Source: an uncultured Chloroflexia bacterium (GTDB lineage Bacteria > Chloroflexota > Anaerolineae > Anaerolineales > Anaerolineaceae). From it: a stretch of DNA of 64,000 bases. The notes under the pieces are model-generated. The model was not told the origin of the DNA. It saw only the letters and a list, made by a program, of their open reading frames with translations, and did no database searches. This document shows, piece by piece, positions 16,154 to 45,011 of the stretch. The stretch spans positions 53,723 to 117,722 of the forward strand of contig CAVVEQ010000011.1 of NCBI GenBank assembly GCA_963747315.1, in the 5' to 3' direction. Position numbers and translations under genes: made by a program. How positions within the stretch are numbered: the stretch's first letter is position 1; each line of letters opens with the position of its first letter.

Positions 16154-16445
16154 TTCTATGTCAGGAGGATATTTGGATCAGCCTATATTTATTGATATTT
16201 CCTTGTTATGACAATTCTAAACTCAAGCGCTTTCATTTTTTACCACTTGTAATCGAATCTCATTTTAGTGTATATTCTAAATTATTCAATTGGCAGTATT
16301 TCATTCGCCGTTTGGAACACTGAATTCTAATTTCATAACCCCCTACGCTGTTGCGAAATATTAATAAAGAATGAAATACTCACAGCAATATTTGGTTTTA
16401 ATTATACCTACCGGACGATAATTATTAGAAACATGGAGGAAGGAA

Positions 16446-17090
16446 ATGAAACTTTATGTGGTGATCTCGTTTGTATTAGTGTTTATTATTGTTCTTACAG
16501 GTTGCCAATCCAGCGGCGAAAAATCTTTACAGGCAACGAATGATGCGCTTGTGAGTGAACTTACCGCCCAGGCCGTTACCAACATCGAGGCTACTAGCGA
16601 GGCAATGATGGTCGAATTGACCAGGCTGGCAGAAATTGCAATACCAACATCAGTGCCGACCATCGATTATCTCACAACCACTGAAGACACAAGTTCTTCC
16701 TTTGCCTTGGAAAGTTGGCGGATTCTCTGGTTTCCATCGGCGACTTTTTTGGCGGATGATGTTGTCACATCAGAGGACTGGGACGATTTTGTTGCCGGAA
16801 TGGCCAGAAATCTAGCTATCCCCGAGCCGTATTACTGGGAATACCTGCAATTGCCGGATGATACGCGATATAAAGACATCGAAGAATACTACATTGAAAA
16901 GGCTACGGAGGAGTTTGACTATAAACTTGCCCAAACACAACAATATGTTACAAAGGGTGGAGATGATACCTACATTCTTTCTTTTACCAAGGGTAAAGGT
17001 GATGCTGCATCTAGGATCGTGATTCAGTTTTGGTCAAAGACCAAGGATTTTCCAGCATCCATGTTGGTGTTTTATGTAAATCCATACTAA
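16446..17090 (+). CDS. Lipoprotein of unknown function, in an AT-rich island
   Basis: Signal peptide plus lipobox (VFIIVLTGC). 214 aa. RBS GGAGGAAGG lies upstream. Confidence 0.6.
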   Translation: MKLYVVISFVLVFIIVLTGCQSSGEKSLQATNDALVSELTAQAVTNIEATSEAMMVELTRLAEIAIPTSVPTIDYLTTTEDTSSSFALESWRILWFPSATFLADDVVTSEDWDDFVAGMARNLAIPEPYYWEYLQLPDDTRYKDIEEYYIEKATEEFDYKLAQTQQYVTKGGDDTYILSFTKGKGDAASRIVIQFWSKTKDFPASMLVFYVNPY

Positions 17091-17157
17091 AGAACCATTT
17101 ACCACGCGCAAAAACATGCCTGATTTCACCGGTGTATAGCGTGTTTTTTTGGATTTC

Positions 17158-17190
17158 AATGCCGGATAACCTAAACCGGCATTTTCTGCC
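17158..17190 (+). terminator. Candidate intrinsic terminator after 16446..17090
   Basis: Stem AATGCCGG (17158..17165) / CCGGCATT (17176..17183) followed by TT. A T8 run also lies at about 17136..17143. Confidence 0.3.
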
Positions 17191-17400
17191 TGAAAATTTA
17201 TAATAAATATTCCTATTACAAAAAGTAGCCATAAACGGAGGCGTTAGGATTACTTTTTTCATTGGCGGATGCCGCTGACCCACCGTACAATCACATTTCA
17301 CCCTATACTATTTTATGTGTTGAGAAGAAATAATCTCCAGGCCTGGAGGGCAGCCAAAAACAGCAATTCGGTCATATGTTGTAAGTAGAAATAGAATTTT

Positions 17401-17427
17401 GGCGGGAACACGTTCCCGCCCTACGGC
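17401..17427. repeat. REP-like palindrome GGCGGGAAC-ac-GTTCCCGCC-CTACGG
   Basis: Seen directly. It shares the CCGCCCTACG end with 17510..17542 and 2229..2243. Confidence 0.7.
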
Positions 17428-17509
17428 CGACAATGATTTTCCTGTGGGAGCAAACTCTCGCTTATATATACCGTCAATGAATTTTTGCCGAGAGTAAAGG
17501 ATATTATTT

Positions 17510-17542
17510 CCGTAGGGCGGGTGCACTGCACCCGCCCTACGG
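17510..17542. repeat. REP-like perfect palindrome CCGTAGGGCGGGTGCA-C-TGCACCCGCCCTACGG
   Basis: A 16-bp perfect stem. It lies at the right edge of AT-rich island 2. Confidence 0.8.
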
Positions 17543-17601
17543 GTTTATTTGGCGGAATTGATCTCGTTAATCCTCCAGGTTACTAAATAGAAATAGTACA
17601 C

Positions 17602-17643
17602 TTGACTAATACTACAAATCTAGTATACTGTGTATAATACAGT
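17602..17643 (+). promoter_or_regulatory. Sigma-70-like promoter plus candidate PadR operator upstream of the padR-like gene
   Basis: TTGACT (17602..17607), 16 nt, TATACT (17624..17629). An overlapping inverted repeat ACTGT-N7-ACAGT (17627..17643) resembles the ATGT-N8-ACAT type of PadR operator. RBS GGAGG lies before ATG 17675. Confidence 0.4.
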
Positions 17644-17674
17644 AAATAAGAAAATGAGAACGAGGAGGTGAAGT

Positions 17675-18007
17675 ATGGAGGAAGATGAGATCCTGGAAAA
17701 CCTGGTGCTGGAACTGCGCCGCGGGGTCATCGTCCTGGCGGTGCTCAGCCAGCTGCAGGAGGAGCAATACGGGTATTCCATCCTCAAACAGCTCTCTGAA
17801 AAGGGGCTGGGGGTGGATCAGGGCACGCTCTACCCGCTGTTGCGCCGCATGGAAAGCCAGGGGCTGCTCGAATCCCGCTGGCGGGTGGAAGCGGATCGGC
17901 CCAGGCGCTACTACGTGGCCAGCCTGCTGGGCAGGCAGATCCTGCCCAAAGTGAAATCGGAATGGATCAAAATTTCCGGGACTTTGGATAAGTTCCTGGA
18001 GCAATAA
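17675..18007 (+). CDS. PadR-family transcriptional regulator
   Basis: LAVLSQLQEEQYGYSILKQLSEKGLGVDQGTLYPLLRRMESQGLLESRW... is a canonical PadR winged helix. Confidence 0.9.
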   Translation: MEEDEILENLVLELRRGVIVLAVLSQLQEEQYGYSILKQLSEKGLGVDQGTLYPLLRRMESQGLLESRWRVEADRPRRYYVASLLGRQILPKVKSEWIKISGTLDKFLEQ

Positions 18008-20184: not shown

Positions 20185-20781
20185 TTAAGCTCCAGCCAGC
20201 TTTGCGCCTAAAGCGCGCGCCTGCGCCAGGAGCTCGGTTTGGCTTTCCATCTCACCCTGCGCGGAGGCGGTGCCGTAAAGGATGCCTGCCACAGGAGAGC
20301 CGGTGTAGCGGCACATATCCTGGAAGCTGCGGATGGCGTTGACCGCACCGGAGGTGTAGGGGTCGTCATCACCATAGGTCAGCACGAGCACCATGTCCTT
20401 GCCCTTCAGGCCGTGGCCGCCGGGGGATTCCAAAGCGTAAAAGCGGTCGATTGCCAGCTTGAGCTGCGCGCTGAAGGTGAACCAGTACACCGGGGTGGCC
20501 AGGACGATCGCGGAGGCTAGCTTAAGGAACGGGTAGATTAGCTGCATGTCGTCGTCGATCACGCAGCCGCTGCCCTGTGGGTGCTGGCAGGAATCGCAGC
20601 CATCGCAGGCGCGCAGGTCCATGCCGTGCAGCCCGAATTCTTTCACCGAACCACCAGCCTGGCGCGCGCCAGCGGCGAGCTCTTCCGCCAGGCGGCTGCT
20701 GTTGCTGCCCGCCCGCGGGCTGGCCTTTAAGATGACGATCATGTTCGTGCTTGTGCCGTCTTGAATTTCGGTTTTTTCCAT
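20185..20781 (-). CDS. Flavodoxin-like NADPH-dependent FMN reductase / iron-sulfur flavoprotein
   Basis: MIVILKASPRAGSNS, Cys cluster CDGCDSC and ATPVYWFTFSAQLKLAIDR. Start chosen at ATG 20781 (MEKTEI). The track ORF extends to 20841. Confidence 0.85.
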   Translation of the reverse strand: MEKTEIQDGTSTNMIVILKASPRAGSNSSRLAEELAAGARQAGGSVKEFGLHGMDLRACDGCDSCQHPQGSGCVIDDDMQLIYPFLKLASAIVLATPVYWFTFSAQLKLAIDRFYALESPGGHGLKGKDMVLVLTYGDDDPYTSGAVNAIRSFQDMCRYTGSPVAGILYGTASAQGEMESQTELLAQARALGAKLAGA

Positions 20782-20843
20782 ATTAAGATGATAACATATT
20801 CCCCGCGGCCGCCTGACGCTGCCGTCAACTTCAGGAGTCATCG

Positions 20844-24969: not shown

Positions 24970-25774
24970 ATGAAAAGAAAACTGTTTGTATTTTCAATCG
25001 TGCTGATCGCCGCAATGCTGGTAGTCACACCCGTGCTGGCGATCACTTTTGGCGAGCTGGATGGCGAGCAGCACCCCAACGTGGGCGCCTTGCTGGTTGC
25101 CTGGCCCTACCCGGCTGGAGCCGTGGATATCGTCTGCACGGGCACCTTGATCGCCCCAGATGTCTTCCTGACCACGGCACACTGCATCAACTGGATGCCG
25201 GGAGCCGGCATCCCCCAGGATGGGGTCTATGTGACTTTCGACTCGGTCTACGAGATCGGCGTCTCCACCATCTACCCTGGCACATACTACACTCAACCCA
25301 AACTACGGGCATGATAACGGCGACCTGCACGACGTGGCAGTGATCGTTCTGGATGAGCCCATCGCCGGCATTGAGCCCGCCAGCCTGCCCCCGGCCGGTT
25401 TGCTGGACGAGATGAAGGATGCCCAAGAATTAAAAGACCGTCCGTTCGTGGCAGTGGGCTACGGCACGGTGCGGGATGACAAAACCGGCGGCCCGCACGC
25501 CCTGTACTGGGAAGGGGCGCGGCGTTTCGTCTCCGGCTCCTACGCCGCCCTGACCCAAAGCTGGCTGAAGATCTCGATGAATCCTTCCACGGGCGACGGC
25601 GGCACCTGCTACGGCGATTCGGGCGGGCCCCACTTCCTGGACTATAACGGGACCGACCTGCTTGTCTCCCTGACCGTCACCGGGGATATCCCCTGCCGGG
25701 CGACGGATGTGACCTACCGCATGGACACAGAATCGGCGCGTTCGTACCTGGCGCAGTTCGTGGAATTGCCATAA
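24970..25774 (+). pseudogene. Secreted trypsin-like (S1) serine protease, single frameshift
   Basis: Signal peptide, His motif LTTAHC (24970 ORF), then Asp DLHDVAVIVLDEP and Ser GDSGGP (25334 ORF). The frames join as ...GTYYTQPNYGHDNGDLHDVAV... if one A is removed from the AAA run at 25300..25302. Confidence 0.8.
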
Positions 25775-25883
25775 AGCCCCACCGCCAGGTGCAACCAGGT
25801 GCAAGGCACTTTGAAAGTGCCTTGCACCTGGCAGCCCTTCTTTACGCTGACCCATGCTTTGCTTGGCTCTCTTTTTTACTTAG

Positions 25884-26012
25884 CGGTTAAAAAAGAGAAC
25901 TTATCTGCGCTCTTCGTGTCTGTTCTGAAAATAGTAACTTCGTGTTCCTTGGCGCCTTGGAGCCTTCGTGGTGTTATTTTCATCCTTCGGGGTGAATGCT
26001 AATCATGACAAC
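25884..26012 (+). repeat. Hairpin-repeat family, variant B copy (CTTCGTG/CCTTGG word repeats)
   Basis: 25921..26012 matches 34428..34519 with about 10 mismatches in 92 nt (tgttctgaaaatag.aacttcgtg...ccttcgtggtg.tattttcatccttc.gggtgaat.ct.atcatgacaac). Confidence 0.8.
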
Positions 26013-26033
26013 TGGGAGGGGTACAATTCTAGA

Positions 26034-26074
26034 AATCTACATACAAACCTTCTAAGAATTATCTTATGAAGATT
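26034..26074 (+). repeat. 41-nt leader sequence, copy A (paralogue of the DUF234-ATPase 5' leader)
   Basis: aatctacatacaaacCttctaagaattatcttatgAagatt differs from 32837..32877 at 2 of 41 nt. It is preceded by TACAAT at the same spacing as the TATAAT of copy B. Confidence 0.85.
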
Positions 26075-26269
26075 TCCTTCCCCGAATAATCTGCCGCGAA
26101 TTGTACGAATACTGCTAATATTCCTTTGGGGCGGGCATCCATTCACGCATTCGTGCACCCTTCGTAGACGGTTCTCCTGTAGTCTGGATCGGCGATCCGG
26201 CCTGCAATGCCGCTCAATTCCTGTGAACTGCGAAAACCATCTGCCCGATTTTTCCGTATACTAAATAAC

Positions 26270-26311
26270 AGTTACGCAGTTCAGGGGAAAACTGCCCCCA
26301 ACTGCGTAACT
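26270..26311 (+). promoter_or_regulatory. Inverted-repeat leader motif AGTTACGCAGTT-N18-AACTGCGTAACT upstream of the GT2 operon
   Basis: Perfect 12-nt arms (26270..26281 and 26300..26311) with inner GGGG/CCCC pairing. It lies 45 nt upstream of the start at 26356, with TATACT at 26256..26261 just upstream. Confidence 0.5.
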
Positions 26312-26355
26312 CCGGTTAAGATAAATACATCAGGATACAATTAGGTATAAAACGG

Positions 26356-27903
26356 ATGCTCATTCACGCCGTTTTTCTGCTGATTTCCATTGCCCTTACG
26401 CTGCTCTTCTTCCTGTACGGGTTCAATCACTATTACCTGCTCGTTGCGGCGCGCCGGTATAGGGTTCCCGAATTGCCCAAGGATTCGAAAGCTCACAGAC
26501 CACGTGTGGCTGTTCACCTGCCGGTATACAACGAGAAGTACGTGATTCACAGGCTGGTATCGGCATGCACAAGTATGGCAGAGGTTTACGGTATCGACCG
26601 GGTGAGGATTGTGATACTGGATGACTCGGATGATGACACGGTCGCTGCCATCGATCAGGAGGCCTCCGATCAGCGCAGGATGGGCTTTCGAGTGGAAGTT
26701 TTGCGCCGCGACAACCGGCTGGGTTTCAAAGCCGGAGCTTTACAGGCGGCGCTCGATCAGACGGAAGAAGAGTTTATCGCCGTCTTTGACGCCGATTTTA
26801 TCCCAGCACCGGAATTCCTGGTTAGCAGCATACCCTATTTTCTTCAGGACGATCAGCTGGGTATCATCCAGAGCCGCTGGACGCACACCAACCGCAGATA
26901 CAATATCTTAACAGAGGCAATCGCCACGGGCATCGATGTGCACTTCCTGATCGAGCAATCCGGGCGCTACGCCGCGGGCTGCTTGCAGAACTTCAATGGC
27001 AGCGGTGGGACCCTGCGCAGGACAGCCTTGCAGCTGGCGGGCGGCTGGCAGGCGGACACCCTGGCTGAGGATCTGGATGCCAGTTACCGCATTCAGATGC
27101 AGGGCTACCGCGTGCTGTATTTAAGAGAACTGCACAGCCCCGGAGAAGTACCGCCGACCGTCCCCAGCTTCAAGAAACAGCAGGGACGTTGGGCTTGCGG
27201 CTCCTTGCAGACAGCCCGGAAACTGCTGCCTGATATGCTCTCCAACCCAAATTTTGGTTTTAAGCTGCGCCTGGAGGCATTCATCCACCTGACCAATTAC
27301 CTGGTACACCCTTTAATGTTTTCTGCTTTCCTGCTCGCCTGCCTATCTGCATTGCTGAGGGTGGATATCTTCCGCATTGGCGCGATCATTGCTGACCTGC
27401 GGAGCACCATCGTTGCCGGGACGGTGAGCTCGGCTGTTTCTTTCTCTCCTGGCTACCTGGGGTGGAGCCTGGCGGGTACGCTCATCGTGCTTTGCACCGT
27501 TGCCGCCTGGATCCCTCCAATGGTGGCTTTGAAAACCCAGCCGCTGCCCTGGTGGCGGAAGACCCTCAGCTTTGTCGTCCTTTTCTTCCTGGGCTGCGGG
27601 GTCAGCTTGAGCAACACCATCGAAGCCGGAAAGGCTTTGTTCACCAAGCGAAGCTGGGTTTTCAAGCGAACGCCCAAATATGCGGTCCAATATGGCGAAG
27701 ACAACTGGCGCGATAAACGCTACCAGGTAGCCTTAGATTTTGTCTGGCTGGTCGAGCTGGCGTTTGTCTGCCTGGGAATAGCATCAATCGGCTCCTCGGT
27801 TTTAAGCTCCAATTACGGGGTATTGGTAATCCTGGTCCCGTTTACCACTGCTTATACATTTGTTTTATTGCTGACGATCTTGCAAAGCCGGCAAGAGGCT
27901 TGA
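26356..27903 (+). CDS. Family 2 glycosyltransferase, processive CslA/cellulose-synthase-like membrane enzyme
   Basis: N-terminal TM helix; GT2 motifs VHLPVYNE, ILDDSDDDT, FDADF, EDLDASYR and QxxRW (QQGRWACG); 4-5 C-terminal TM helices. Confidence 0.9.
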   Translation: MLIHAVFLLISIALTLLFFLYGFNHYYLLVAARRYRVPELPKDSKAHRPRVAVHLPVYNEKYVIHRLVSACTSMAEVYGIDRVRIVILDDSDDDTVAAIDQEASDQRRMGFRVEVLRRDNRLGFKAGALQAALDQTEEEFIAVFDADFIPAPEFLVSSIPYFLQDDQLGIIQSRWTHTNRRYNILTEAIATGIDVHFLIEQSGRYAAGCLQNFNGSGGTLRRTALQLAGGWQADTLAEDLDASYRIQMQGYRVLYLRELHSPGEVPPTVPSFKKQQGRWACGSLQTARKLLPDMLSNPNFGFKLRLEAFIHLTNYLVHPLMFSAFLLACLSALLRVDIFRIGAIIADLRSTIVAGTVSSAVSFSPGYLGWSLAGTLIVLCTVAAWIPPMVALKTQPLPWWRKTLSFVVLFFLGCGVSLSNTIEAGKALFTKRSWVFKRTPKYAVQYGEDNWRDKRYQVALDFVWLVELAFVCLGIASIGSSVLSSNYGVLVILVPFTTAYTFVLLLTILQSRQEA

Positions 27904-27904
27904 G

Positions 27905-29170
27905 TTGCGCAGCTCACTACCACCGCTGCGTTTCACACCCATCTGGCGCATTACCCAGGATCAGGTTATCTTGCTGGTGAGCATCTTGTTGCAACTCACC
28001 CTTGGGCTTTTGTTCGGGCACGCTTACGACATGCGCATCGCCATGGCAACCGGGTACCTGGTGAGCAGTAGAGAAAACCCCTATATTGCTCAGGATCTGA
28101 GCGGTGTTTTCCAAAACGAGGCATTCCAGGGGATGACCAGCGTCGGCTACCCGCCTCCCTGGCCGCTGCTGTTGGGGCTGATCTACCGGAGCGCTGCTGC
28201 TCTGGCCTCGAATCTGATGGTCTACAACCTGGCTATCAAGCTTCCGATCATCGCGGCCAATATCTACCTGGCGTACCTGGTGGCGGATATACTTAAAAAT
28301 TTGGGGGCAGAGAGGCGGGTCATGCGGCGAGCCTGGGTCTTTATGCTCTTATGCCCATTCGTCCTATATTTCGGTCCCGCCTGGGGGCAGTTCGATGCGA
28401 TCGTCGTTTTGCTCACGCTGCTGTCGCTGGTACACCTGGATCAAGGCAGGTTGTCCAGCTCGGCAGTCTTGCTGGCATTGGGGATAGCCTTCAAGCCGAT
28501 CGCTCTGCCGCTCTTTCCGGTAGCAGTGCTGTTTTTACGTGGAAAATCAACCCGCCAGGCGATTACCTACTCGCTGTGGTTCTCAGCCAGTCTGATGGGG
28601 TTTTGCGCACTGCCGTTTCTGCTGCTGGCGTGGGATCCTGCACCGATCCTGCGCGGATGGAACGCACACTTCACGGTCGGCGGGGCGATGTCGTTCATGA
28701 CCTTTTTTGAGCTTCTAAAGGATACCTACCAGCTCCCAGGAAAGTGGTGGCTTTTGGGACTGGCCTGGGTGCCAGCAATGGGGTTTGCTGTGTATACTAT
28801 CCGGCACGGGATCTTCGGGTTCCGGGATCTGCTGCGGAAAAGCCTGGGGATGATTCTGGTTTTCTATCTGACCAGAACCTGGCTGTCTGAGCCGAATATT
28901 CTGCTGATCCTGCCCCTGGCACTGATTTTGACCTCGCTGGGCGAGCTACCCCCGCTGGTGTTCCATGCACTATGGATGCTCCCCTTGATCTTTACCGTTT
29001 TCAATGCCTCGCCGCCGCAACTGATGTGGTTAAATTTTCCGCAGGTGATGCAGGTGTGGCTAGACTGGCTGGAGGGATTGCGGAGATTCCGGCTGCTGGC
29101 GCGTATCGCCGTGGCGATCCCCTGGCAAATCGTTGGCTGGTGGACCGTCGCGGCGTGCTTCAAAAGTTGA
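27905..29170 (+). CDS. Polytopic membrane protein, GT-C-like (DUF2029/PMT_2-like) candidate glycosyltransferase
   Basis: About 11 TM helices. It has an early acidic loop (GHAYDMRIA), GQFDAIVVLLTLLSL and AFKPIALPLFP, all typical of GT-C lipid-linked-sugar transferases. It starts 1 nt after the GT2 stop. Confidence 0.7.
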   Translation: MRSSLPPLRFTPIWRITQDQVILLVSILLQLTLGLLFGHAYDMRIAMATGYLVSSRENPYIAQDLSGVFQNEAFQGMTSVGYPPPWPLLLGLIYRSAAALASNLMVYNLAIKLPIIAANIYLAYLVADILKNLGAERRVMRRAWVFMLLCPFVLYFGPAWGQFDAIVVLLTLLSLVHLDQGRLSSSAVLLALGIAFKPIALPLFPVAVLFLRGKSTRQAITYSLWFSASLMGFCALPFLLLAWDPAPILRGWNAHFTVGGAMSFMTFFELLKDTYQLPGKWWLLGLAWVPAMGFAVYTIRHGIFGFRDLLRKSLGMILVFYLTRTWLSEPNILLILPLALILTSLGELPPLVFHALWMLPLIFTVFNASPPQLMWLNFPQVMQVWLDWLEGLRRFRLLARIAVAIPWQIVGWWTVAACFKS

Positions 29171-29183
29171 ATTGAGCTCAAAC

Positions 29184-30014
29184 ATGGAGATCACCTTTCC
29201 ACTTTCTTCAGACGTCTGTCTGAAGCTTATGCCGGCTGAACAGAACCGGTCAGGCTATCCAACTTCTCGATTGCAGAAGGGACTGGTTTTAATTGTTAAC
29301 GGCGAGGATCTGGCGGAGGAAGGCGTGGGTTTTGGCACGCCGCTGCTCAAGCTTGGGCTAAAAACGATTTATCCAGGGGCTGTCTTGCTGTCTGATTGGA
29401 GAGAAGGGCTGGAAATTACGGCTGTCTACCGCATCAACCTGGAAGAGAAGCTGACGCGCCATAACCTGAGCAAGGTGCAGAGCCAGTTGCTCTACCGGGT
29501 TAAGGACAACCTGGCTGGCGCCTACCGGCGGTTTCCCCGTCTGCGGCGCGGGTTGACCGCCCTTTCCAATGGGCTGCGAGGCGGCTTCGGCTGGCAGACC
29601 GCCTATGAATACTCTGACCATGATTATGCGGTGAAAGTGCACTATGCAGTGGATCAGCATACGGGGCTCATCTCAATGGATATCGATGCCTCCGCATTGC
29701 CGCAAAGAGGTGTGACAGAAGTTGTGATCATGAATGAGCAGGGCGCCCATCACTTTGACGCCTACATGGATACCAACGGGGCGCGCCTGCACGGGGAGGC
29801 GATCGGCAGCTGGGAGGAAGTTACCGCTGAGCGCGCTTGTTTCAACAGCTCGCGCCACCGGCTGGCGTTCTGCCTGCCGCAAGTCGAGGCGGCGCGCCTG
29901 TTCCGGGGCAGGGAGCTGGTTGGGTCCCGTCTGGCCTGGGCTGGTTTTGGGTATTCATTTGCGCCGATCAGCCAACGCATCGCCTACTCCCTTCAGATTG
30001 AAAGGCTGCCATGA
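29184..30014 (+). CDS. Hypothetical soluble protein (no recognisable domain), third gene of the GT2 operon
   Basis: ATG 29184 (MEITFPLSS). 276 aa, with normal composition. Its stop overlaps the start of the downstream rSAM gene (ATGA at 30011..30014). Confidence 0.6.
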   Translation: MEITFPLSSDVCLKLMPAEQNRSGYPTSRLQKGLVLIVNGEDLAEEGVGFGTPLLKLGLKTIYPGAVLLSDWREGLEITAVYRINLEEKLTRHNLSKVQSQLLYRVKDNLAGAYRRFPRLRRGLTALSNGLRGGFGWQTAYEYSDHDYAVKVHYAVDQHTGLISMDIDASALPQRGVTEVVIMNEQGAHHFDAYMDTNGARLHGEAIGSWEEVTAERACFNSSRHRLAFCLPQVEAARLFRGRELVGSRLAWAGFGYSFAPISQRIAYSLQIERLP

Positions 30015-31387
30015 GCACCATCCTGCTGGTCTATCCCTTTTTCTTGCCCCGGCGCGACCGCTCCGTGTTTCGTTTCCCTCCCCTGGGTCTGGGGTATCTG
30101 GCTGCCAGCCTGCAGAGCGCCGGGCACCAGGTGCACCTGCTGGACTGTACTTTCAGGGACCGAGAGGCCGCCTTGGAGGAAGCCGTGGAGACGAGAGCAG
30201 ACATTGTGGGCATCTACTGCATGGTGACGATGGTCGAGGACTGCCGCTGGTTCGCTCGCAACCTGCGCCCGCATTGCCGGCTGCTGGTCGCCGGCGGCCC
30301 GTTACCCACCTGCGACCCGCTCCCCTTTCTGCAGGATTTTGACCTGGTGGTGCGAGGAGAGGCAGAGGAGACACTGGTCGAGCTGTCAGCCGCCTGGGAG
30401 GCGGCTGACTCGCAGACCTCCGCGGAATGGAGCAAAGTGCCGGGTTTGGTTTACCGGAGCCAGGCGGCAGGCGAAGGCGAGATTATCGAGTCCGCGGTGA
30501 GGCCATTAATCAGTGATCTGAATCTCCTTGACTTTCCTGCCCGGCAGATGTTCCCCAACGAAAATTACATCCGTTTTGGGAAAAAGAAATACGGCTACTC
30601 GATCACCACGGTGATGAGCACACGTGGGTGCCCGTTCCACTGCGAGTTCTGCAGCAATGTCGTCTTTGGGGGCTCGTTCCGCCAGCGCCTGGCTGGGAAT
30701 GTGGTGGATGAGATCGAACAGGCGCTGGCTCTAGGGTATGACCGGATTGCTTTTGCCGATGACGTCTTCACCCTTAATCGCCGCCGGGTTTGGGAAATTT
30801 GTGCGGAGATCAAGGGCAGGGGGCTGCGCTTCCACTGGGAATGCCTGGGACGGGTAGACAGCCTGGATTACCCGACTGCGGTGGAAATGAAGTCGGCGGG
30901 TTGTACCCGCATCTACTTTGGCATCGAATCCGGCAATGACCACATCCTGAAATTGATGAAGAAGCAGGTCACTACTGCCCAGGCGCGCCAGGCTGTTGAA
31001 GCCGCTCACCGGGCTGGTCTGGAAGTTGGTGCTTTCTTCATCCTGTTCTACCCGGGGGAAAGCGACGCGACGGTGCTGGATACGCTGCGCTTTGCGACTT
31101 CTCTTCCGCTGGATTACCTGGGACTGACCATGCCTTACCCGCTTCCGGGGACGGCGCTGTATCTGCGCACGAAATCCCGGATTTTTCGCAGCTGGCGCCC
31201 CGATGACAGCCTGTTGTGGAGCCATGTGTTGATTTACGATTCCGAGTTCTCGGAGACCAAGATGTGGTTTGGCATTATGAAAGGGCATACCCAGTTTGAG
31301 ATTAAAAAGCGCTTTGGTAAGGCTGCACCGTTCATGCTGAAGCTGTTCGAAAAGCCCACCGATGTGGTTTTGAGGCTCTTGAAATAA
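30011..31387 (+). CDS. B12-binding-domain radical SAM protein
   Basis: N-terminal B12-binding-like Rossmann region (ILLVYPFF...PPLGLGYLAASLQSAGHQVHLLD) and radical-SAM cluster motif TRGCPFHCEFCSN. Confidence 0.9.
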   Translation: MSTILLVYPFFLPRRDRSVFRFPPLGLGYLAASLQSAGHQVHLLDCTFRDREAALEEAVETRADIVGIYCMVTMVEDCRWFARNLRPHCRLLVAGGPLPTCDPLPFLQDFDLVVRGEAEETLVELSAAWEAADSQTSAEWSKVPGLVYRSQAAGEGEIIESAVRPLISDLNLLDFPARQMFPNENYIRFGKKKYGYSITTVMSTRGCPFHCEFCSNVVFGGSFRQRLAGNVVDEIEQALALGYDRIAFADDVFTLNRRRVWEICAEIKGRGLRFHWECLGRVDSLDYPTAVEMKSAGCTRIYFGIESGNDHILKLMKKQVTTAQARQAVEAAHRAGLEVGAFFILFYPGESDATVLDTLRFATSLPLDYLGLTMPYPLPGTALYLRTKSRIFRSWRPDDSLLWSHVLIYDSEFSETKMWFGIMKGHTQFEIKKRFGKAAPFMLKLFEKPTDVVLRLLK

Positions 31388-31416
31388 GCAAAGGAACCCT
31401 GATGCCGGAGAGACCG

Positions 31417-32739
31417 CTAGCGCTTCTTTTCACTGAAGGCTTGCATGGTTTGACCAATCCGGCGCATCAGCCAGTCTGGATCAAACTCGGAGGAATAGAG
31501 GAAGGTCACTTCATTTTCTTTGTCCCAATCGCCCTCAACCAGACCGCTGATGCGCTTGAACAGACTGGAACCAGGCAGCGGGTAAGGGACATTAAAAGAG
31601 ATGTCATCTAAGGGCAGGGTTAAAGCCAGCTTGAAAGTCTTATCGATGGATTGGATGGTCTCACCCGGGTAGCCAACGATAAAGAAAGCCGCGACCTCAA
31701 TTCCGGCCTGGTGAAACTGGTGCACGGCTTGGATGCCTTCCTCCACCGAGGCCTTTTTGTTCATTATGTCCAGTGTGGTCTGGTCGCCTGTCTCCAGCCC
31801 GAGGTAAACCCGGCGGCAGCCTGCAGACTTCATTGTTTGTGCAATTTCGGCGTTGATCCCGGTGACGCGCGAGAGGCAGCTCCAGCTAATCTGCTGACCA
31901 GCAATATGCTGACCAGCAATACGCTGACCAGCAATACGCTGGCAGAAGTCTCTTAAGTAAGAAAGGTTCAAGGTGAAGTTGTCGTCGGCGATCCATAGAC
32001 AATCATAGCCCAGGCGGCGGATTTGATCGATTTCTGCGAACACCAGGTCCAGGCTGCGGCGGCGGAAGAGATTGCCGAACACGGGGCGGGAGCAGAAATC
32101 GCAATTGAACGGGCAGCCAAGGGTAGTGATGATCGAGGTGGTTTTTGTTCCGGTCTTCTCCAGCCATTCCTTCTGGTAAGCGGCGTGGTTATAGTCGCTT
32201 CGATCCGGTAGGGGAAAGGTGTTGATCTCCTCTTCGCCGTAGTGAATGGTCGGATTTTTAATATGAAGCCCATCCTTGCTAATGAAGAGGCCGGCATAGC
32301 TGTCTAATGGAAGGTCTGCCAGCCTGTGTCGATCCATTTTTTGTTCAAAAAGATCCCGGCAAAAATGAGGAAAGCTCTGGTCGGCTTCACCGCAGAAGAC
32401 GGCATCGAAAACAGAGCTGTAGCGTTCGGGGTAAAGGGTGGGGAAGGGACCGCCAGCAACGAGCAAGCTACCGGGCAAGCTTCCCCGAACCATTTCGGCG
32501 ATGCGGAAGGTGTTCCGGCTGTGGCTGACCATCGAGTAGATGCCCACCACGGTGGGTTGGTAGGCGAGCAGGTCTTTTTGAAGCTGGTGAAAGGTTGAGA
32601 AGGTGCAGTCAAAGATGCGGGCTTCGATGCCAATCTGGTGTAGCTGGCTGGCGAGGAAGGCCGGCCCGAGGGGAGGAAAGAGCATTTCCGTGTAGGCACG
32701 GGTGCGAAAATAAGGGAAGACGATCGCCACTCTGGACAT
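31417..32739 (-). CDS. B12-binding-domain radical SAM protein (paralogue, convergent)
   Basis: VAIVFPYF...PPLGPAFLASQLHQIGIEARIFD plus TLGCPFNCDFCSR. It contains an in-frame 15-nt tandem repeat encoding RIAGQRIAGQHIAGQ. Confidence 0.9.
   Translation of the reverse strand: MSRVAIVFPYFRTRAYTEMLFPPLGPAFLASQLHQIGIEARIFDCTFSTFHQLQKDLLAYQPTVVGIYSMVSHSRNTFRIAEMVRGSLPGSLLVAGGPFPTLYPERYSSVFDAVFCGEADQSFPHFCRDLFEQKMDRHRLADLPLDSYAGLFISKDGLHIKNPTIHYGEEEINTFPLPDRSDYNHAAYQKEWLEKTGTKTTSIITTLGCPFNCDFCSRPVFGNLFRRRSLDLVFAEIDQIRRLGYDCLWIADDNFTLNLSYLRDFCQRIAGQRIAGQHIAGQQISWSCLSRVTGINAEIAQTMKSAGCRRVYLGLETGDQTTLDIMNKKASVEEGIQAVHQFHQAGIEVAAFFIVGYPGETIQSIDKTFKLALTLPLDDISFNVPYPLPGSSLFKRISGLVEGDWDKENEVTFLYSSEFDPDWLMRRIGQTMQAFSEKKR
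31894..31938. repeat. 15-bp tandem repeat, 3 copies, inside the rSAM gene
   Basis: ctgaccagcaatatg / ctgaccagcaatacg / ctgaccagcaatacg on the plus strand. It is in frame on the minus strand. Confidence 0.9.
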
Positions 32740-32802: not shown

Positions 32803-32830
32803 TTGACACCCCCGCCGTCAGGGTTATAAT
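32803..32830 (+). promoter_or_regulatory. Consensus sigma-70 promoter of the DUF234 ATPase gene
   Basis: TTGACA (32803..32808), 16 nt, TATAAT (32825..32830). The conserved 41-nt leader begins at 32837. Confidence 0.6.
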
Positions 32831-32882: not shown

Positions 32883-34343
32883 ATGGACGCCTTCGTCGAC
32901 CGCCGTGCCGAGCTGGACGAGCTGAACCGCCTGCAGCGCCAGGAGCAAGCCCACTTCTTAGCCGTGTACGGGCGGCGGAGGGTTGGCAAAACCCGCCTGC
33001 TGCTCCACTGGGCGGAGCACAGCGGCTGTCCCTACCTGTACTGGGTGGCGCGCCGCGAGACTCCGGATGCCTGCCGGCAAAGCCTGGCGCGCGCCCTATA
33101 CGCCTGGCTCTACCCAGGGCTGGAATCTCCCCAGCCGCCGCGCTTCGACAGCTGGGAGACCCTCCTGCGGGAGGTCGCCACCCGCCTGGGCGAGCGCATC
33201 GCCGGGCAGCCGGTGATCCTGATCTTCGACGAGTTCCCTTACGCTGTGGAATCTGACCCCAGCCTGCCCTCCCACCTGCAGGCTGCCTGGGACCACTTCT
33301 TCAAGAGCCAGCGCATCATCCTGGCGCTCTCCGGCTCGCATATCGGCATGATGGTTGACCTGATGGAGTACGACGCCCCCCTGCACGGGCGCTTCACCGC
33401 CCAGTTCCCGGTCGACCCGCTGCCCTTCTCCGCCCTGCGGGCCTTCTTCCCCGGCTACACCGCCGCCGAGCGGGTGTCCACCTACGCCACCCTGGGCGGC
33501 ATCCCGGCTTACCTGGAGCGCTTCGACCCCGGGCAAAGCCTGGACGAGAACATTCGCGGCCACCTGCTGCGCCGCACGGGCATGTTCCGCAGCGAGCCGG
33601 CGGTGCTGATCAGCGACCTGGTGCGCGAGACGCGCATCTACGAGGCCATCCTGCGCACGGTTGCCGGCGGGGCGCACACCCCGGCGGAGATCGCCGGCCA
33701 GACCGGCCTGCTGCCCAACAACCTGCCGCCCTATCTCAAGCGCCTGCAAGAGCTGCGCCTGATCGAGCGCCGCGTGCCCGCCACCATCCCCCTCGACCAG
33801 GTGCACAGCACCACCCGCAGCCGCTACCACCTGCGGGATGCCTACCTGCGCTTCTACTTCCGCTTCATCGAGCCGCACCAATCGATCATCGAGCTGGGCA
33901 ACGTGGAGACGCTCTGGCAGCGCATCGCCGGGCAGTTCAATGCCTTCGTCGGCGCGACCGCCTTCGAAGACCTGTGCCGGGAATGGCTCCTGCGCCGCTC
34001 GCAGGCGGGCGAGCTGCCCTTCATCCCCGAGGTCATCGGCAGCCACTGGTCCGCCGGCGAGCAGGTGGACGTGCTGGCAATCAACTGGCGCCAGCGCGAG
34101 ATCTTGCTCGGCGAGTGCAAATGGAGCCGGGAGCCGCTGCAGCCCGCCGTGCTGTCCGGACTGGCGGCGAAAACCCTCGCCGTCGCCCCCGGACAGGGCT
34201 GGAAGGTGTACTACGCCCTGTTTGCCCGCTCCGGCTTCACCCGCGCCGCCCGCCAGGCGGCAGAGGACTACGGCGCCCTGCTGGTGGACCTGGAGAGACT
34301 GGACGAGGATTTGGCGGGAGAGATTAGAGATTCAAAGATTTAA
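32883..34343 (+). CDS. AAA+ ATPase of the archaeal-ATPase/DUF234 family
   Basis: FVDRRAELDEL, Walker A GRRRVGKT and Walker B LIFDEFPY. There is a winged-helix-like middle region and a C-terminal DUF234-like region (...GSHWSAGEQVDVLAINW...LGECKW). Confidence 0.85.
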   Translation: MDAFVDRRAELDELNRLQRQEQAHFLAVYGRRRVGKTRLLLHWAEHSGCPYLYWVARRETPDACRQSLARALYAWLYPGLESPQPPRFDSWETLLREVATRLGERIAGQPVILIFDEFPYAVESDPSLPSHLQAAWDHFFKSQRIILALSGSHIGMMVDLMEYDAPLHGRFTAQFPVDPLPFSALRAFFPGYTAAERVSTYATLGGIPAYLERFDPGQSLDENIRGHLLRRTGMFRSEPAVLISDLVRETRIYEAILRTVAGGAHTPAEIAGQTGLLPNNLPPYLKRLQELRLIERRVPATIPLDQVHSTTRSRYHLRDAYLRFYFRFIEPHQSIIELGNVETLWQRIAGQFNAFVGATAFEDLCREWLLRRSQAGELPFIPEVIGSHWSAGEQVDVLAINWRQREILLGECKWSREPLQPAVLSGLAAKTLAVAPGQGWKVYYALFARSGFTRAARQAAEDYGALLVDLERLDEDLAGEIRDSKI

Positions 34344-39690: not shown

Positions 39691-40359
39691 ATGGAAACCG
39701 TCCTGACTTCGATCAGCCTGGGCCTGCTGGCCAGCGCCAGCCCGTGCATCCTGCCGCTGTATCCAGGCTACCTGGCCTACCTGAGCGGGGCGAGCCAGAC
39801 ATCCCGCGGCAGCAAGCGCTATTTCCTGGGCTTCTTTGTGCTGGCAGGCGTGCTGAGCATGATGCTGGCGCTGGGCCTGCTGATCGCACTGGTATCGGTT
39901 TCGGTGGGGCGGGCGCTCTCGGTGGTCATCCCTCTGGCAGACCTGCTAATCATCTCCCTGGGGGTCCTGCTCCTGCTGGACAAGAACCCGTTCAAGGCCT
40001 TGCCGCAGATCGAAGCGCCCGCCTTGAGCAGCCCGTACGTCAACGCCTATCTGTACGGCTTGCTGTACGGACCGATCGCCCTGCCCTGCTCTGGCCCGCT
40101 GGTGGTGAGCATCTTTGCCATCTCGCTAACCGCTGCAGAAGCCCTGAGCAAGCTGAATATCTTCCTGTGGTTCGGGGTGGGGTTCGGGCTGCCGCTGCTG
40201 GCGCTCTCGCTAATCTCCGGCGCCATGCAGCGCGATATCACCCGCTGGCTGGCGATCAACGCCCGCCTGGTCAACATCCTGGGCGGGCTGCTGCTGGTGG
40301 GGATTGGGCTCTACGATTTCTGGGCCAACTGGGAGCTGATCGGCCTGCTGCTGGGGTAA
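39691..40359 (+). CDS. ccdA: Cytochrome c biogenesis / thiol-disulfide electron transfer membrane protein CcdA (DsbD-like TM domain)
   Basis: Conserved Cys in TM1 (ASASPCILPLYPGYLAYL) and TM4 (GPIALPCSGPL). Six TM helices. Confidence 0.85.
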   Translation: METVLTSISLGLLASASPCILPLYPGYLAYLSGASQTSRGSKRYFLGFFVLAGVLSMMLALGLLIALVSVSVGRALSVVIPLADLLIISLGVLLLLDKNPFKALPQIEAPALSSPYVNAYLYGLLYGPIALPCSGPLVVSIFAISLTAAEALSKLNIFLWFGVGFGLPLLALSLISGAMQRDITRWLAINARLVNILGGLLLVGIGLYDFWANWELIGLLLG

Positions 40360-40490
40360 AGGATTGAACCGCAAAGAGGTAAAGATTTAACCACCAAGAA
40401 CACCAAGAAGTGCGAAGGAACACAAAGAAGGCTTTATTAAATCTCTTCGTGATCTTCGGGTTTTCTTGGTGGTCTTTGTGGTTCAATATA
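40358..40490 (+). repeat. Hairpin-repeat family, variant A copy
   Basis: aaagatttaaccaccaagaacaccaagaagtgcgaaggaacacaaagaag...cttcgtgatcttcgggttttcttggtggtctttgtggttcaata. Confidence 0.85.
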
Positions 40491-40504
40491 TCCTAGCAAG
40501 AGGC

Positions 40505-40617
40505 AGAGATTGAACCACCAAGAACACGAAGAAGTTCAAAAGAACACAAAGAAAACCTTATAAACTCCTTCGTGTTCTTCAGGTTTTCTTCGTGTTCTTC
40601 GTGGTTCAAGGTTTTAT
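40505..40617 (+). repeat. Hairpin-repeat family, variant A copy
   Basis: agattgaaccaccaagaacacgaagaagttcaaaagaacacaaagaaaa...cttcgtgttcttcaggttttcttcgtgttcttcgtggttcaagg. Confidence 0.85.
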
Positions 40618-40623
40618 TTACCG

Positions 40624-40995
40624 TTATTCCTGGATGATTTCCGCCTGGAAGCGGCGCCGGTGCAGGTCTTCGCGCACCGGGGCGAAGAAATCGGTCAGCT
40701 CGGCGGGCACATCCCCATCGTTGCGCTCGGAATGGGGCGCGCCGGGCGGGATGTAAAAGAACTCGCCGGCGCTCACCGGGTACTCTTCGCCGTTGATGGT
40801 GAAGATGATCGTCCCTGCCAGGACGATCCCGCTCTGCTCATTGGGGTGGACGTGCACCGGTGCGTTGGCGCCCGGCTCCCAGCGCGTCCACATCACGGTC
40901 ATGTTCTGCCCTTCGATCAGCATGCGCGAGAACACGCCCTTGTGCTTTTCGATCGGCCATTCTTCTACATTGGCTGGGTTAATCACGTGGTTCAT
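40624..40995 (-). CDS. Cupin-domain protein
   Basis: Cupin motifs GANAPVHVHPNEQSG and GEFFYIPPGAPHS. Confidence 0.85.
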   Translation of the reverse strand: MNHVINPANVEEWPIEKHKGVFSRMLIEGQNMTVMWTRWEPGANAPVHVHPNEQSGIVLAGTIIFTINGEEYPVSAGEFFYIPPGAPHSERNDGDVPAELTDFFAPVREDLHRRRFQAEIIQE

Positions 40996-41049
40996 GGTTT
41001 AATCTCCGTGAGGGGGTTGGGTGAGGTCTGGACTCATTTTAGCATAGGA

Positions 41050-41158
41050 TTAAAGATTGAACCGCCAAGGGCGCGAAGAAGCGAAGAAGCACAAAGAAAA
41101 CCAAAAATATATCTTGGTGTTCTTTGGGTTCTCTTGGTGGTCTTCGTAGTTCAATGTT
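41050..41158 (+). repeat. Hairpin-repeat family, variant A copy (near-twin of 45012..45124)
   Basis: ttaaagattgaaccgccaagggcgcgaagaagcgaagaagcacaaagaaaa...ttctttgggttctcttggtggtcttcgtagttcaatgtttt. The termini are inverted (GATTGAAC...GTTCAAT). Confidence 0.9.
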
Positions 41159-41180
41159 TTACATTTTTACGGGGTGGGAG

Positions 41181-41225
41181 TAAAGATTGAACCGCCAAGG
41201 GCGCGAAGGGGCGCGAATAATCACG
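41181..41225 (+). repeat. Hairpin-repeat family, truncated left arm only
   Basis: taaagattgaaccgccaagggcgcgaaggggcgcgaataatcacgc. Confidence 0.7.
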
Positions 41226-41239
41226 CAGAATATCGCTGC

Positions 41240-42847
41240 TTATGGGACAATGTGAAATATTACCGCAAAACCATCGCGATAAACTTCTTCCAAGCGCAAA
41301 TCGGCTTCAGCCTTGCGGATAAAAGCAGTATGGTTCAGGTCAGAGAGGATATAGCGGGCAGCAAATTTACCCTCGATCTGCTGGGATAGTTGATCCACCT
41401 GGCCACGGGTTATCGCTCGCCAATCCTCGTATAGCCCCGCGTTATACAATTGCATATAGGTAGGATCTAACCCGATTAGATATGTGTTGTGTGTATTGTA
41501 GAAAAATAAACGCGGGAAGTCATCCCAATCTGTCTGGAAAATGCGCTCGCCTTGGGCAGTGTTCCGAATTAACCAGGCAGAAGCATCGGCGTACGTCTCA
41601 TAGGGTTTGGATCCTTGAATGCTTTTGATAGTTGCAGGCAAGGTGTGGAATACGCCCAGGCTCACCAGGATCAACACCGTACCGGCGATCCCCAAATATT
41701 GCCAGCGGGACGCAAGGACTTGCTTCAGTTTATCCGGCGCAGCAACCAGGGTTTCCTCTAACCAACCGCCAGGCTGCAACAGGGATTGAAATGCCAGGCT
41801 GCCAAATATCAAGGCAAAAGGAGCAAGATATTCAATAAAATGGCGTGATCTCATGGTCATCCAACTGAAAAGGAACACCATTAACAATGCCACCGCCGTA
41901 GCTGATTTCATACGCCGCCCTGTAATCCCCAGGGTAAGAAAGCCTAAACCCAGCAGCGCTAGTACCGGCCAGGAATTCTCCAATAACTGAGCAGTGGTAT
42001 AGGGATACCATTCGCCACCCACCCCCACCGAAGTGGCTTCTCCTACTTTTGGCAGGATATGCCGGATCGTAAAAATAATGTTATGCGGGAAATATGGATG
42101 AATGACCAAACCGGCTATGATCCCGATCATTGAGTAGACCGCTGGTTGAAATGCCAGGCGCCTGTCAACCAGCCATACTGCCAATGCATAAACCACTGCC
42201 ATAATTGGTAAAAGGGGAAAAGCATTATACATCCAGACATAAATAAAACCGACCAGGACAAATAGTTTTGTTCTTCCTTGTAGCATCCAATGCAAACTCA
42301 ACGCCAGGATGGCCAGAGATAACGACGGGGACCGTGTAAGGCTCATCCTGGACAAAAATGCCTCCGAGATAACCAGCAATCCCAAAGCCCACAAGGCAGG
42401 ATAGCGCACCTTCTGCCCACGGAGTAGCCACCAAATACATAAAAAGGCAGCGCTGGCAAAGATAATGCTCGCCCATTTTGCCCCTAATCGTAAATCGCCA
42501 AAGGTAAACGGGATCAGTGCAACATGAAAAAGGAAATGATGATTACTATACTCGCTCTCATTTAAGATGGTTAACGGCAACCAGGGATAGTCTGGGCGCA
42601 AACCCTCCTGACGCATGATCTGAGCCATTTTTATATGGTAATACCCATCGTTGCCGGCCAAATCGGGGGTCGAAAATTGGATCACCGACATACCCAAGCT
42701 AAAAACAAAAAACAGTAAGATTGCTTGCAAAACCAGCTTGATGGCAGGTTGAGAAACCAGGACGTTGCGAATATTCTTAATAACCGAAAAAAGGCGACTC
42801 TGGACTGCTGCGTTGAACGATTTCTCGTAGGGAAGTTCGGGATTCAT
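41240..42847 (-). CDS. Large polytopic membrane protein, GT-C-like (AT-richer cassette)
   Basis: 535 aa with about 13 TM helices. First loop is [18 protein letters not shown]. The C-terminal soluble domain ends ...[13 protein letters not shown]. It lies downstream of the sigma/anti-sigma pair on the same strand. Confidence 0.7.
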
Positions 42848-42941
42848 ATCTCAATTATTCCACAAGATGGCTGCAGGCAGTATCCGAGCTCCCTGCAGCC
42901 ATCACTGCAACCGAGATGGTCTACATTAGCTAATATTTTGA

Positions 42942-45006: not shown

Positions 45007-45011
45007 ACAAA

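Follow-up and report, generated by a model that had tools for sequence, protein, structure and literature searches.

A B12 radical SAM and GT-C gene cassette of Anaerolineales as a candidate membrane-associated glycoconjugate module

Several systems are known in which a sugar is tailored while it is anchored to a membrane lipid. The ArnC/ArnD/ArnEF/ArnT pathway and the three-component Gtr systems combine a polyprenyl-phosphate glycosyltransferase of family 2 (GT2), a small four-helix flippase and a glycosyltransferase of the GT-C fold, and ArnD tailors the sugar before flipping. GT-C enzymes transfer sugars from polyprenyl-phosphate carriers at the outer face of the membrane. In the synthesis of moenomycin, MoeK5 methylates a sugar carbon of the phosphoglycolipid. 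The archaeal radical S-adenosylmethionine (SAM) enzyme Cds turns a lipid-bound hexose into calditol. The general logic of modifying a lipid-linked sugar and then transferring it by a GT-C enzyme has been reviewed (PMC11127046). Here we compare with these systems a five-gene cassette in a 64,000-nucleotide stretch of DNA (the window) from an uncultured Chloroflexia bacterium of the family Anaerolineaceae (GenBank assembly GCA_963747315.1, contig CAVVEQ010000011.1, positions 53,723 to 117,722 of the forward strand; all coordinates below are those of the window).

The cassette encodes a membrane-embedded, cellulose-synthase-like GT2 (gene 1), a polytopic GT-C-fold protein (gene 2), a soluble protein of an undescribed sequence family (gene 3) and two radical SAM proteins with a B12-binding domain (RS1 and RS2, genes 4 and 5). 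We consider it about an even bet (probability roughly 0.5) that these genes are the Anaerolineales form of a conserved membrane-associated glycoconjugate module, in which a sugar is tailored by radical chemistry and then transferred by the GT-C protein. A sequence-only reading of the same DNA had placed the genes in an unassigned glycoconjugate or lipid-modification pathway, and this label is still the right one; none of the five proteins attains a curated NCBIfam cut-off. The literature searched contains no description of the cassette, nor of any B12 radical SAM enzyme that depends on a partner of new structure and probably takes a lipid-linked sugar as substrate.

The five genes and their protein families

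Gene 1 (26356..27903, plus strand, 515 amino acids (aa)) ends with a TGA at 27901-27903, and after a single base gene 2 (27905..29170, plus strand, 421 aa) begins with TTG. Gene 3 (29184..30014, plus strand, 276 aa) was called mechanically from a TTG at 29133, but 25 aligned homologues start at the position of the ATG at 29184. Its stop overlaps the start of RS1 (30011..31387, plus strand, 458 aa) in the ATGA at 30011-30014. RS2 (31417..32739, minus strand, 440 aa) converges on RS1, the two stops lying 29 nucleotides (nt) apart. These junctions were read from the DNA, and together with the list of open reading frames (ORFs) and their translations they bear out the five ORFs, the tight packing, the one-base gap before gene 2 and the ATGA overlap given in the sequence-only reading.

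Gene 1 scores above the Pfam thresholds of PF13641 (76.9 bits), PF13632 (70.3), PF00535 (61.5) and PF13506 (26.5). Its closest solved relative is BcsA (4hg6 and 5ej1, E 6e-25), and it also matches 6yv7, a minimal cellulose-synthase-like archaeal mannosyltransferase (E 9e-15). Among 18 orthologues and outgroups, the residues D89, D90 and D93, D145xD147, F213-N-G and E238-D239 are invariant, and so are Q275-Q-x-R-W279 (Q275QGRW279 in the window) and the loop R438-T-P-K441. The prediction places one hydrophobic helix at the N-terminus and about five at the C-terminus, some six in all. The D, DxD, ED and QQxRW signature, the RTPK loop and BcsA as the nearest structure agree with the earlier assignment as a processive CslA-like GT2; a polymerising activity and a transmembrane glycan channel are predicted from this type. 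The protein stays below every curated cut-off of NCBIfam, for instance with 121 bits against the 699 of CelA.

For gene 2, single-sequence and profile searches gave no significant match in Pfam, NCBIfam or the PDB. Some of its 810 homologues carry weak or precomputed tags of PF09594 (GT87), PF03155 (Alg6_Alg8) or PF26314, and the window protein does not reach the gathering score of GT87 or Alg6_Alg8. Its fold was recognised from an AlphaFold model with a mean local confidence (pLDDT) of 86.7 and a predicted template modelling score (pTM) of 0.87. Foldseek matched this model to ALG6 (6snh, TM score 0.66, E 7e-5), to glycosylphosphatidylinositol mannosyltransferase I (PIG-M, 9wno, TM 0.64) and to PimE (TM 0.55), each with a probability of 1.00, and further to PIGU, ALG3/9/12, STT3 and EmbB. 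The GT-C-like nature suggested earlier for gene 2 is thus supported by structure. All of the nearest structures use dolichyl- or polyprenyl-phosphate sugars. The motif H39-x-Y41-D42 is invariant in 29 sequences and lies directly after helix 1, which we take to be where known GT-C enzymes have their catalytic acid. These residues may be catalytic, and they would face outwards, in the first extracytoplasmic loop.

Gene 3 had been called an orphan without a recognisable domain. The second part of this statement holds, since neither Pfam nor NCBIfam has a family for it and single-sequence as well as profile searches gave no match there or among the sequences of the PDB. The first part does not, as gene 3 belongs to a uniform family from about 162 species: a database clustered at 90% holds 569 relatives, and searching exhaustively with a profile gave 537 cluster representatives. 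Nearly all of them are 270-300 aa long and unnamed. Structure prediction and a fold search, as proposed in the sequence-only reading, led to a galactose-mutarotase-like beta-sandwich: the AlphaFold model (pLDDT 87.5, pTM 0.86) is a beta-supersandwich with a two-helix insert. The best Foldseek match is a domain of GH129 (5opq, E 5e-5, TM 0.50), followed by the aldose-1-epimerase-like structures 3q1n, 3k25, 2htb and 3nre (TM 0.38-0.43, probability at least 0.98); the P1 domain of YidC and GH38 domains are matched as well. Hence, a fold of the sugar-binding type is predicted from the model. In 118 diverse members E46, N184, E185, E244, W210, W252, F50 and F191 are near-invariant, a Glu/Asn/Trp pattern that is typical of sugar-binding or sugar-processing sites. 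The catalytic His/Glu set of aldose 1-epimerases and membership in their sequence family were not found.

Two fusion proteins provide supporting evidence for a link between gene 3 and glycosyltransferases. In P0127, a GT-C protein is joined to a gene-3 domain by an 18-residue linker. P0144, which is encoded between the GT-C gene and RS1 of locus L085, consists of a 235-residue GT2-A domain and a gene-3 domain. Its GT2-A domain carries the sequence MDSDLQHPP, a motif typical of polyprenyl-phosphate glycosyltransferases of the DPM1/GtrB/ArnC type, and has sub-threshold NCBIfam matches to ArnC, PgfS, PpgS, AglJ and dolichyl-phosphate hexose transferase. A further GT-C/gene-3 fusion in locus L039 was rejected, as the two parts lie in different frames and resulted from crude ORF calling in a high-GC genome.

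That genes 4 and 5 encode paralogous radical SAM proteins with a B12-binding domain, as had been proposed, is evident from their domains and motifs. RS1 scores 67.8 bits for the B12-binding domain PF02310 (cut-off 32.1) and 88.9 bits for the Radical_SAM domain PF04055 (cut-off 29.5); the respective values of RS2 are 48.1 and 94.6 bits. The CxxxCxxC motif is present as GCPFHCEFC in RS1 and GCPFNCDFC in RS2, and the two proteins are 33% identical over their full length (E 7e-80). The use of cobalamin is predicted from the B12-binding domain. AprD4 (6fd2, 2e-21) is the nearest solved relative of RS1, followed by the entry 9ccb (2.6e-19), and AprD4-like proteins have the B12-binding domain but not the cofactor. 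The sequence-only reading would have been refuted by a clear orthology to a characterised radical SAM family unrelated to glycoconjugates; none was found. The best profile scores of RS1 are three- to five-fold below the curated NCBIfam cut-offs (ApyD 150.9 against 750, BchE 150.1 against 481, PhpK 125.8 against 600), and no equivalog cut-off of the BchE, PhpK, ApyD, HpnR or GenK-type families is reached.

RS2 of the window contains a 15-nt tandem repeat (31893-31941, minus strand, 3.3 copies, 97% match), which encodes the in-frame 10-residue insertion RIAGQ-RIAGQ-HIAGQ. Since it is missing from six orthologues, we regard the insertion as a recent lineage-specific expansion that left the frame intact. 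In one Anaerolineae lineage, the site of RS2 holds only a 104-aa ORF (L003, L004 and L008, 12214-12528); this lineage seems to have lost RS2 or to keep a degraded form of it, and its other cassette genes are intact. An anti-phage defence function of the five genes was rejected, as PADLOC returned nothing beyond trivial matches to the radical SAM core (24.8 and 18.9 bits).

Conservation, spread and a sixth component

In a distribution scan with one genome per species, relatives of gene 3 were detected in 162 genomes. The carriers are mostly metagenome-assembled genomes (MAGs) of Anaerolineae and other Chloroflexota from peat, bog, fen, permafrost, soil, groundwater and lake sediment, and many others are Actinomycetota, Thermoleophilia among them. 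The labels Bacteroidota, Chitinivibrionales and Spirochaetota each occur on a single genome, and the archaeal carriers are Candidatus Methanoperedens and Methanothrix. One carrier is in culture, Longilinea arvoryzae KOME-1, with all genes of the six-gene version described below intact (NZ_DF967972.1, about 4.008-4.025 Mb).

Synteny was studied in 84 loci centred on gene 3, 82 of which extend past gene 3 towards RS1. RS1 lies directly downstream of gene 3 in all 82, with 54-84% identity (56-58% in archaea). The order gene 2, gene 3, RS1 with junctions of 0-4 nt is kept in 78 of the 84 loci, and RS2 occupies the same convergent position in most bacterial loci (53-80% identity). The flanks of the conserved loci are unrelated. 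More than 100 independent loci of several phyla, all with such unrelated flanks, repeat this gene order and these strands; the arrangement is far beyond chance, and we take the cassette to be a functional unit. A neighbourhood confined to this genome would have spoken against the sequence-only reading; what we found instead is a cassette conserved across phyla. The closest relative of the window cassette lies on an Anaerolineales MAG chromosome (65-84% protein identity), which places the source of the window in the Anaerolineales of the phylum Chloroflexota.

Clustering of the neighbouring ORFs revealed a sixth component (for example L087 6515-6940, L089 1578-2042 and L037 11557-12024). This protein has about 155 aa, four predicted hydrophobic helices and conserved histidines, and it matches DUF420 weakly. 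The DUF420 matches of these four-helix proteins are below the Pfam threshold. The position of the gene varies: it stands upstream of the GT2 gene, of the GT-C gene or, on the opposite strand, of RS2. In all four archaeal loci and in one bacterial locus the homologue has 136-139 aa and shares 23-30% identity with the bacterial type (E to 5e-8); its gene immediately precedes gene 3 in three of the archaeal four. Counting both types, a four-helix gene is present within 8 kb in 64 of the 84 loci, and some of the remaining loci are truncated. Relatives with 73-74% GT2 identity carry it directly upstream of the GT2 gene; at this place the window has a 580-nt non-coding stretch of lower GC content (25775-26355).

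Within that stretch, about 105 nt upstream of gene 1, lies the motif TTTCCGTATACTAAAT (26251-26266) with a TATACT hexamer resembling a -10 element. In the general form TTTCCGTA(N)TA it is common only to the window, L005 and L086, and it is probably the operon promoter of this lineage rather than a family-wide element. The window contains no tRNA gene. Regulation of the cassette by a riboswitch or another RNA was rejected, as no Rfam element was found in the window and eight related loci yielded a single tRNA only.

The universal core, shared by bacteria and archaea, is thus gene 3 with RS1, the two being translationally coupled, usually accompanied by the DUF420-like four-helix protein. The GT-C protein and RS2 are bacterial additions, and the GT2 is specific to the Anaerolineae. 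Treating the five genes as a unit, as was done from the sequence, was right in so far as the neighbourhood is strongly conserved, but the core consists of genes 3 and 4 and a four-helix protein that the window lacks. Actinomycetota cassettes have a third B12-type radical SAM protein, 27-31% identical to RS1, which is encoded upstream of the four-helix gene or downstream of RS2 (L017, L023, L047, L052, L056, L057, L059, L066, L067, L074 and L076). The archaeal and spirochaete loci are without a homologue of gene 2, and other GT-C-like genes (PMT_2-like, DUF2298 and GT87-like) are found within a few kb.

A CslA-like GT2 is encoded in 43 of the 84 loci, all labelled Chloroflexota. In a reverse test, in which the window GT2 was searched against metagenomes, all relatives with at least 49% identity adjoin the cassette wherever enough downstream DNA is available, with the gene order swapped in one case. 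Four relatives with 35-39% identity are not adjacent to it. This split between the two groups indicates that the GT2 is a dedicated addition of the Anaerolineae lineage. Upstream of the cassettes that have no CslA-like GT2 we found unrelated genes and no other GT2, and the neighbourhoods of the four outgroup proteins gave no useful clue.

Other neighbouring genes were considered as parts of the cassette and rejected, as they recur sporadically or in close genomes; they encode a flavin mononucleotide (FMN) reductase, Lipoprotein_15, DUF2231, an aldo-keto reductase, a short-chain dehydrogenase/reductase (SDR) and a pyridine-nucleotide oxidoreductase. In Methanothrix, a gene resembling NADPH-dependent FMN reductase lies just upstream of the four-helix gene, gene 3 and RS1 (L082 575-1147, L083 140-712). 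Distant homologues occur several kb from some bacterial cassettes and in the window (20185-20841, minus strand, 26% identity, E 7e-7). This flavoprotein might supply the radical SAM enzymes with electrons, or it may lie there by coincidence.

A proposed pathway and competing explanations

The substrate, the chemistry, the order of the steps and the roles of gene 3 and of the four-helix protein are read here from genomic context and fold. In the pathway that we propose, a lipid-linked hexose, most likely linked to polyprenyl phosphate, would be held by the gene 3 protein on the cytoplasmic face of the membrane. RS1 and RS2 would then alter the sugar by radical chemistry, most likely by methylation of unactivated carbons, with one regiospecific step for each paralogue. 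After tailoring, the lipid-linked sugar would be moved to the outer face; as a guess, the four-helix protein could serve as the flippase or as an anchor. Finally, the GT-C protein would move the sugar to an extracytoplasmic acceptor, in Anaerolineae probably a beta-glycan or a lipid-linked glycan produced by the neighbouring GT2.

The glycoconjugate character of this proposal is based on the invariant motifs of the GT2, the GT-C fold of gene 2 and the galactose-mutarotase-like fold of gene 3. Tailoring is placed in the cytoplasm because neither a signal peptide nor a membrane helix is predicted for gene 3, RS1 or RS2. We favour a lipid-linked donor since the nearest structures of the GT-C protein use such donors and the GT2-A domain of L085 is DPM1-like. 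C-methylation is favoured because two or three diverged paralogues fit regiospecific steps, and because B12 radical SAM methylases acting on membrane-anchored molecules have precedents in MoeK5, Hgm and HpnP/HpnR. We further regard it as possible, albeit doubtful, that the cassette represents a new route to envelope glycoconjugates: C-H functionalisation of a polyprenyl-phosphate sugar by B12 radical SAM enzymes, docked by a beta-sandwich adaptor or enzyme and a four-helix protein, use of the product as donor by the GT-C protein, and horizontal spread among Chloroflexota, Actinomycetota and methane-cycling archaea of anoxic peat and sediments.

A number of observations weigh against the proposed pathway. 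Searching the window by tblastn with the GT2-A domain of L085 did not find a donor synthase of the DPM1/GtrB type, and gene 1 with its QxxRW motif and RTPK loop is of the processive-synthase type and not of the DPM1/GtrB type. The window encodes no obvious flippase. No trace of the four-helix gene was found in its 64 kb or in its closest genomic relative L005, and where the four-helix partner is present it resembles DUF420 and not the GtrA-type flippases. The fold match of gene 3 is moderate (TM 0.4-0.5, 5-10% identity) and extends to the non-enzymatic P1 domain of YidC; moreover, no histidine is invariant among the 118 members, so the protein is not a canonical mutarotase. P0127 and P0144 are single metagenomic gene calls, and P0127 could be due to read-through or a sequencing error. 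As for the chemistry, methylating and non-methylating B12 radical SAM proteins cannot be separated by sequence, and the matches include the non-methylases BchE and HpnJ. Ring contraction of the HpnJ/Cds type, dehydration of the AprD4 type or another reaction would also be compatible with RS1 and RS2.

Ring contraction is central to an alternative that we consider unlikely. Here the GT2 would add a hexose to a membrane lipid and a radical SAM enzyme would contract the pyranose to an acid-stable carbocyclic ether head group of the cyclitol type, as in a head-group rearrangement by HpnI/HpnJ or calditol synthase; gene 3 would hold or open the sugar, and the GT-C protein would then extend the head group. 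Precedent chemistry has been described for HpnJ and Cds, and HpnJ (TIGR03471) is among the better profile matches of RS1; however, the 134.2 bits of RS1 and the 94.5 bits of RS2 widely miss its cut-off of 577.6. Gene 1 passes the Pfam threshold of GT21, the ceramide glucosyltransferase family (26.5 against 21.7 bits), but HpnI is absent among the 20 NCBIfam matches listed for it, where HpnB alone appears, at E 1e-4, and a YdjC-type deacetylase (HpnK) was not found in the cassette of any inspected locus. The structural relatives PimE, PIG-M and ALG6 all act on lipid-anchored acceptors, and many carriers come from acidic peat, bog and fen; calditol is linked to acid tolerance. On the other hand, two to three radical SAM paralogues would be unexpected for a single ring contraction, and half of the cassettes are without a GT2.

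It is less probable still that the radical SAM enzymes act on the hydrocarbon of a lipid or polyprenol by methylation, cyclisation or cross-linking, in the manner of Tes, Grs, Hgm/Gmm or HpnP/R, and that the glycosyltransferases build the head group only. Many known lipid-tailoring enzymes are radical SAM proteins with a B12-binding domain, the lipid-associated family TIGR04072 is among the sub-threshold NCBIfam matches, and the core includes an integral membrane partner. Yet the cassette spans bacteria and archaea, with an RS1 identity of 56-58%, despite their differing membrane lipids. The obligatory partner gene 3 has a fold of the sugar-binding type, and the score of no such family comes near its cut-off.

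We consider it more improbable again that the three core proteins act on a tetrapyrrole or a different membrane cofactor, with a BchE-like RS1, a haem- or porphyrin-binding four-helix protein and glycosyltransferase genes that are associated only secondarily. Of the profile matches of RS1, that to BchE alone covers nearly the full length (residues 4-435), although its 150 bits are far from the cut-off. DUF420 has been linked to the assembly of haem-copper oxidases, a relationship to haem A synthase has been discussed, and the function of aa3 oxidase requires it, as in the case of CtaM. Histidines are conserved in the four-helix proteins; their DUF420 matches, however, are under the threshold. 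The tight linkage to the GT-C gene in 78 of the 84 loci, the GT2 subfamily dedicated to the cassette and the carbohydrate-type fold of gene 3 argue against a tetrapyrrole substrate, and no tetrapyrrole genes were nearby in the inspected neighbourhoods. Finally, a fortuitous adjacency or a set of decaying genes without a shared pathway, which the missing four-helix gene and the recent repeat insertion in RS2 might suggest, is hardly credible given five intact ORFs that overlap or abut and an order kept in more than 100 loci of several phyla with unrelated flanks.

Returning to the glycoconjugate module, its significance lies in the organisms and in the enzymology. The envelopes of Anaerolineae, Thermoleophilia and the bacteria that live beside them in peat and sediment are almost uncharacterised chemically, though these organisms are abundant in carbon-rich anoxic soils. 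About 160 species have the cassette, in which two or three B12 radical SAM enzymes go together with a GT-C protein, and this predicts a new surface glycan or glycolipid. If the proposal is true, its product, a branched-chain or carbocyclic sugar, could be used as a biomarker and would influence how the cells withstand acid or stress. In enzymological terms, the interest lies in B12 radical SAM enzymes that depend on a partner of new structure and probably take a lipid-linked sugar as substrate. Since the cultured Longilinea arvoryzae KOME-1 has an intact six-gene version, the question is directly testable.

Several features of the window lie outside the cassette. Downstream of it, a gene at 32883-34343 (plus strand) encodes a protein with ATPase_2 and DUF234 domains, for which PADLOC gives a match to its candidate defence family PDC-S27 (E 3e-39). 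A perfect sigma-70 consensus promoter (12/12, 32803-32830) stands before this gene, which is not conserved beside the cassette elsewhere. Upstream, the ORFs 24970-25314 and 25334-25774 (plus strand) lie in different frames and weakly match the trypsin fold (E about 0.003-0.005), the first its N-terminal and the second its C-terminal half, so that they may be a frameshifted serine-protease gene. Three islands (2001-4000, 14001-18000 and 40001-46000) have a GC content of 44-53%, against about 60% elsewhere, and may have been acquired horizontally. Their large ORFs are mostly without a Pfam family (2246-3280, 3551-4993, 16446-17090 and 41240-42847); the one at 42942-44333 has DUF5667 and DUF5666.

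Comparison with known systems

The sequence-only reading had drawn on the logic of HpnI and HpnJ. As an analogy this is fair: in the hopanoid system of HpnI (GT2), HpnK (deacetylase) and HpnJ, a GT2 is likewise co-encoded with a radical SAM enzyme that has a B12-binding domain, and radical chemistry on the sugar of a membrane-anchored molecule resembles our proposal. As a membership it fails, given the HpnJ score (134 against 578 bits), the missing HpnI match and the lack of HpnK. The hpn cluster has no counterpart of the GT-C protein, the gene 3 family, the second radical SAM paralogue or the four-helix protein, and no hopanoid genes were seen in the inspected neighbourhoods.

An Arn/Gtr-type scheme is no weaker as an analogy than the hopanoid pathway, because the enzymes closest to gene 2 in structure work with polyprenyl- or dolichyl-phosphate sugars. 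These systems share with the cassette a GT-C gene that is co-encoded with a GT2 and, in most relatives, with a small four-helix membrane protein, and variant L085 even has a GT2 domain of the DPM1/GtrB/ArnC kind. They differ in that their GT2 is of the GtrB/ArnC type whereas that of the window is of the BcsA/CslA type, and in that their flippase is GtrA or ArnE/F whereas the 136-155-aa four-helix protein of the cassette relatives matches DUF420, weakly, and not GtrA. We know of no Arn/Gtr-type system that uses B12 radical SAM enzymes or a protein like gene 3.

Gene 1 by itself is similar to BcsA, plant CslA, NodC and hyaluronan synthase, with which it shares the D, DxD, ED, QxxRW and FNG motifs, the gating-loop-like RTPK and the C-terminal membrane helices. 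In contrast to BcsA-type synthases, it is far from the CelA cut-off, its cassette is without partners of the BcsB/C type, and its subfamily is found solely beside a GT-C gene.

Among the radical SAM enzymes, the archaeal calditol synthase Cds resembles our proposal in its chemistry on a lipid sugar head group and in its acidic habitats. Compared by description and not by sequence, it differs in acting alone, with neither a GT-C protein nor a partner like gene 3. MoeK5, Hgm/Gmm and HpnP/HpnR share the enzyme class and the domain order with RS1 and RS2, and their substrates are found at the membrane surface; however, they are not orthologous to RS1 and RS2, as no cut-off is reached, and they are not coupled to a beta-sandwich partner. 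A 2026 review of lipid-modifying radical SAM enzymes covers Tes, Mss, Gms, GrsA/B, Gmm, Cds, HpnH/J/P/R, Jaw5 and the ladderane enzymes, and none of these systems resembles the cassette. Overall, the protein family of gene 3 is undescribed, and the logic into which the cassette would fit, be it the tailoring of a lipid-linked sugar with GT-C transfer or the tailoring of a head group, is a known one.

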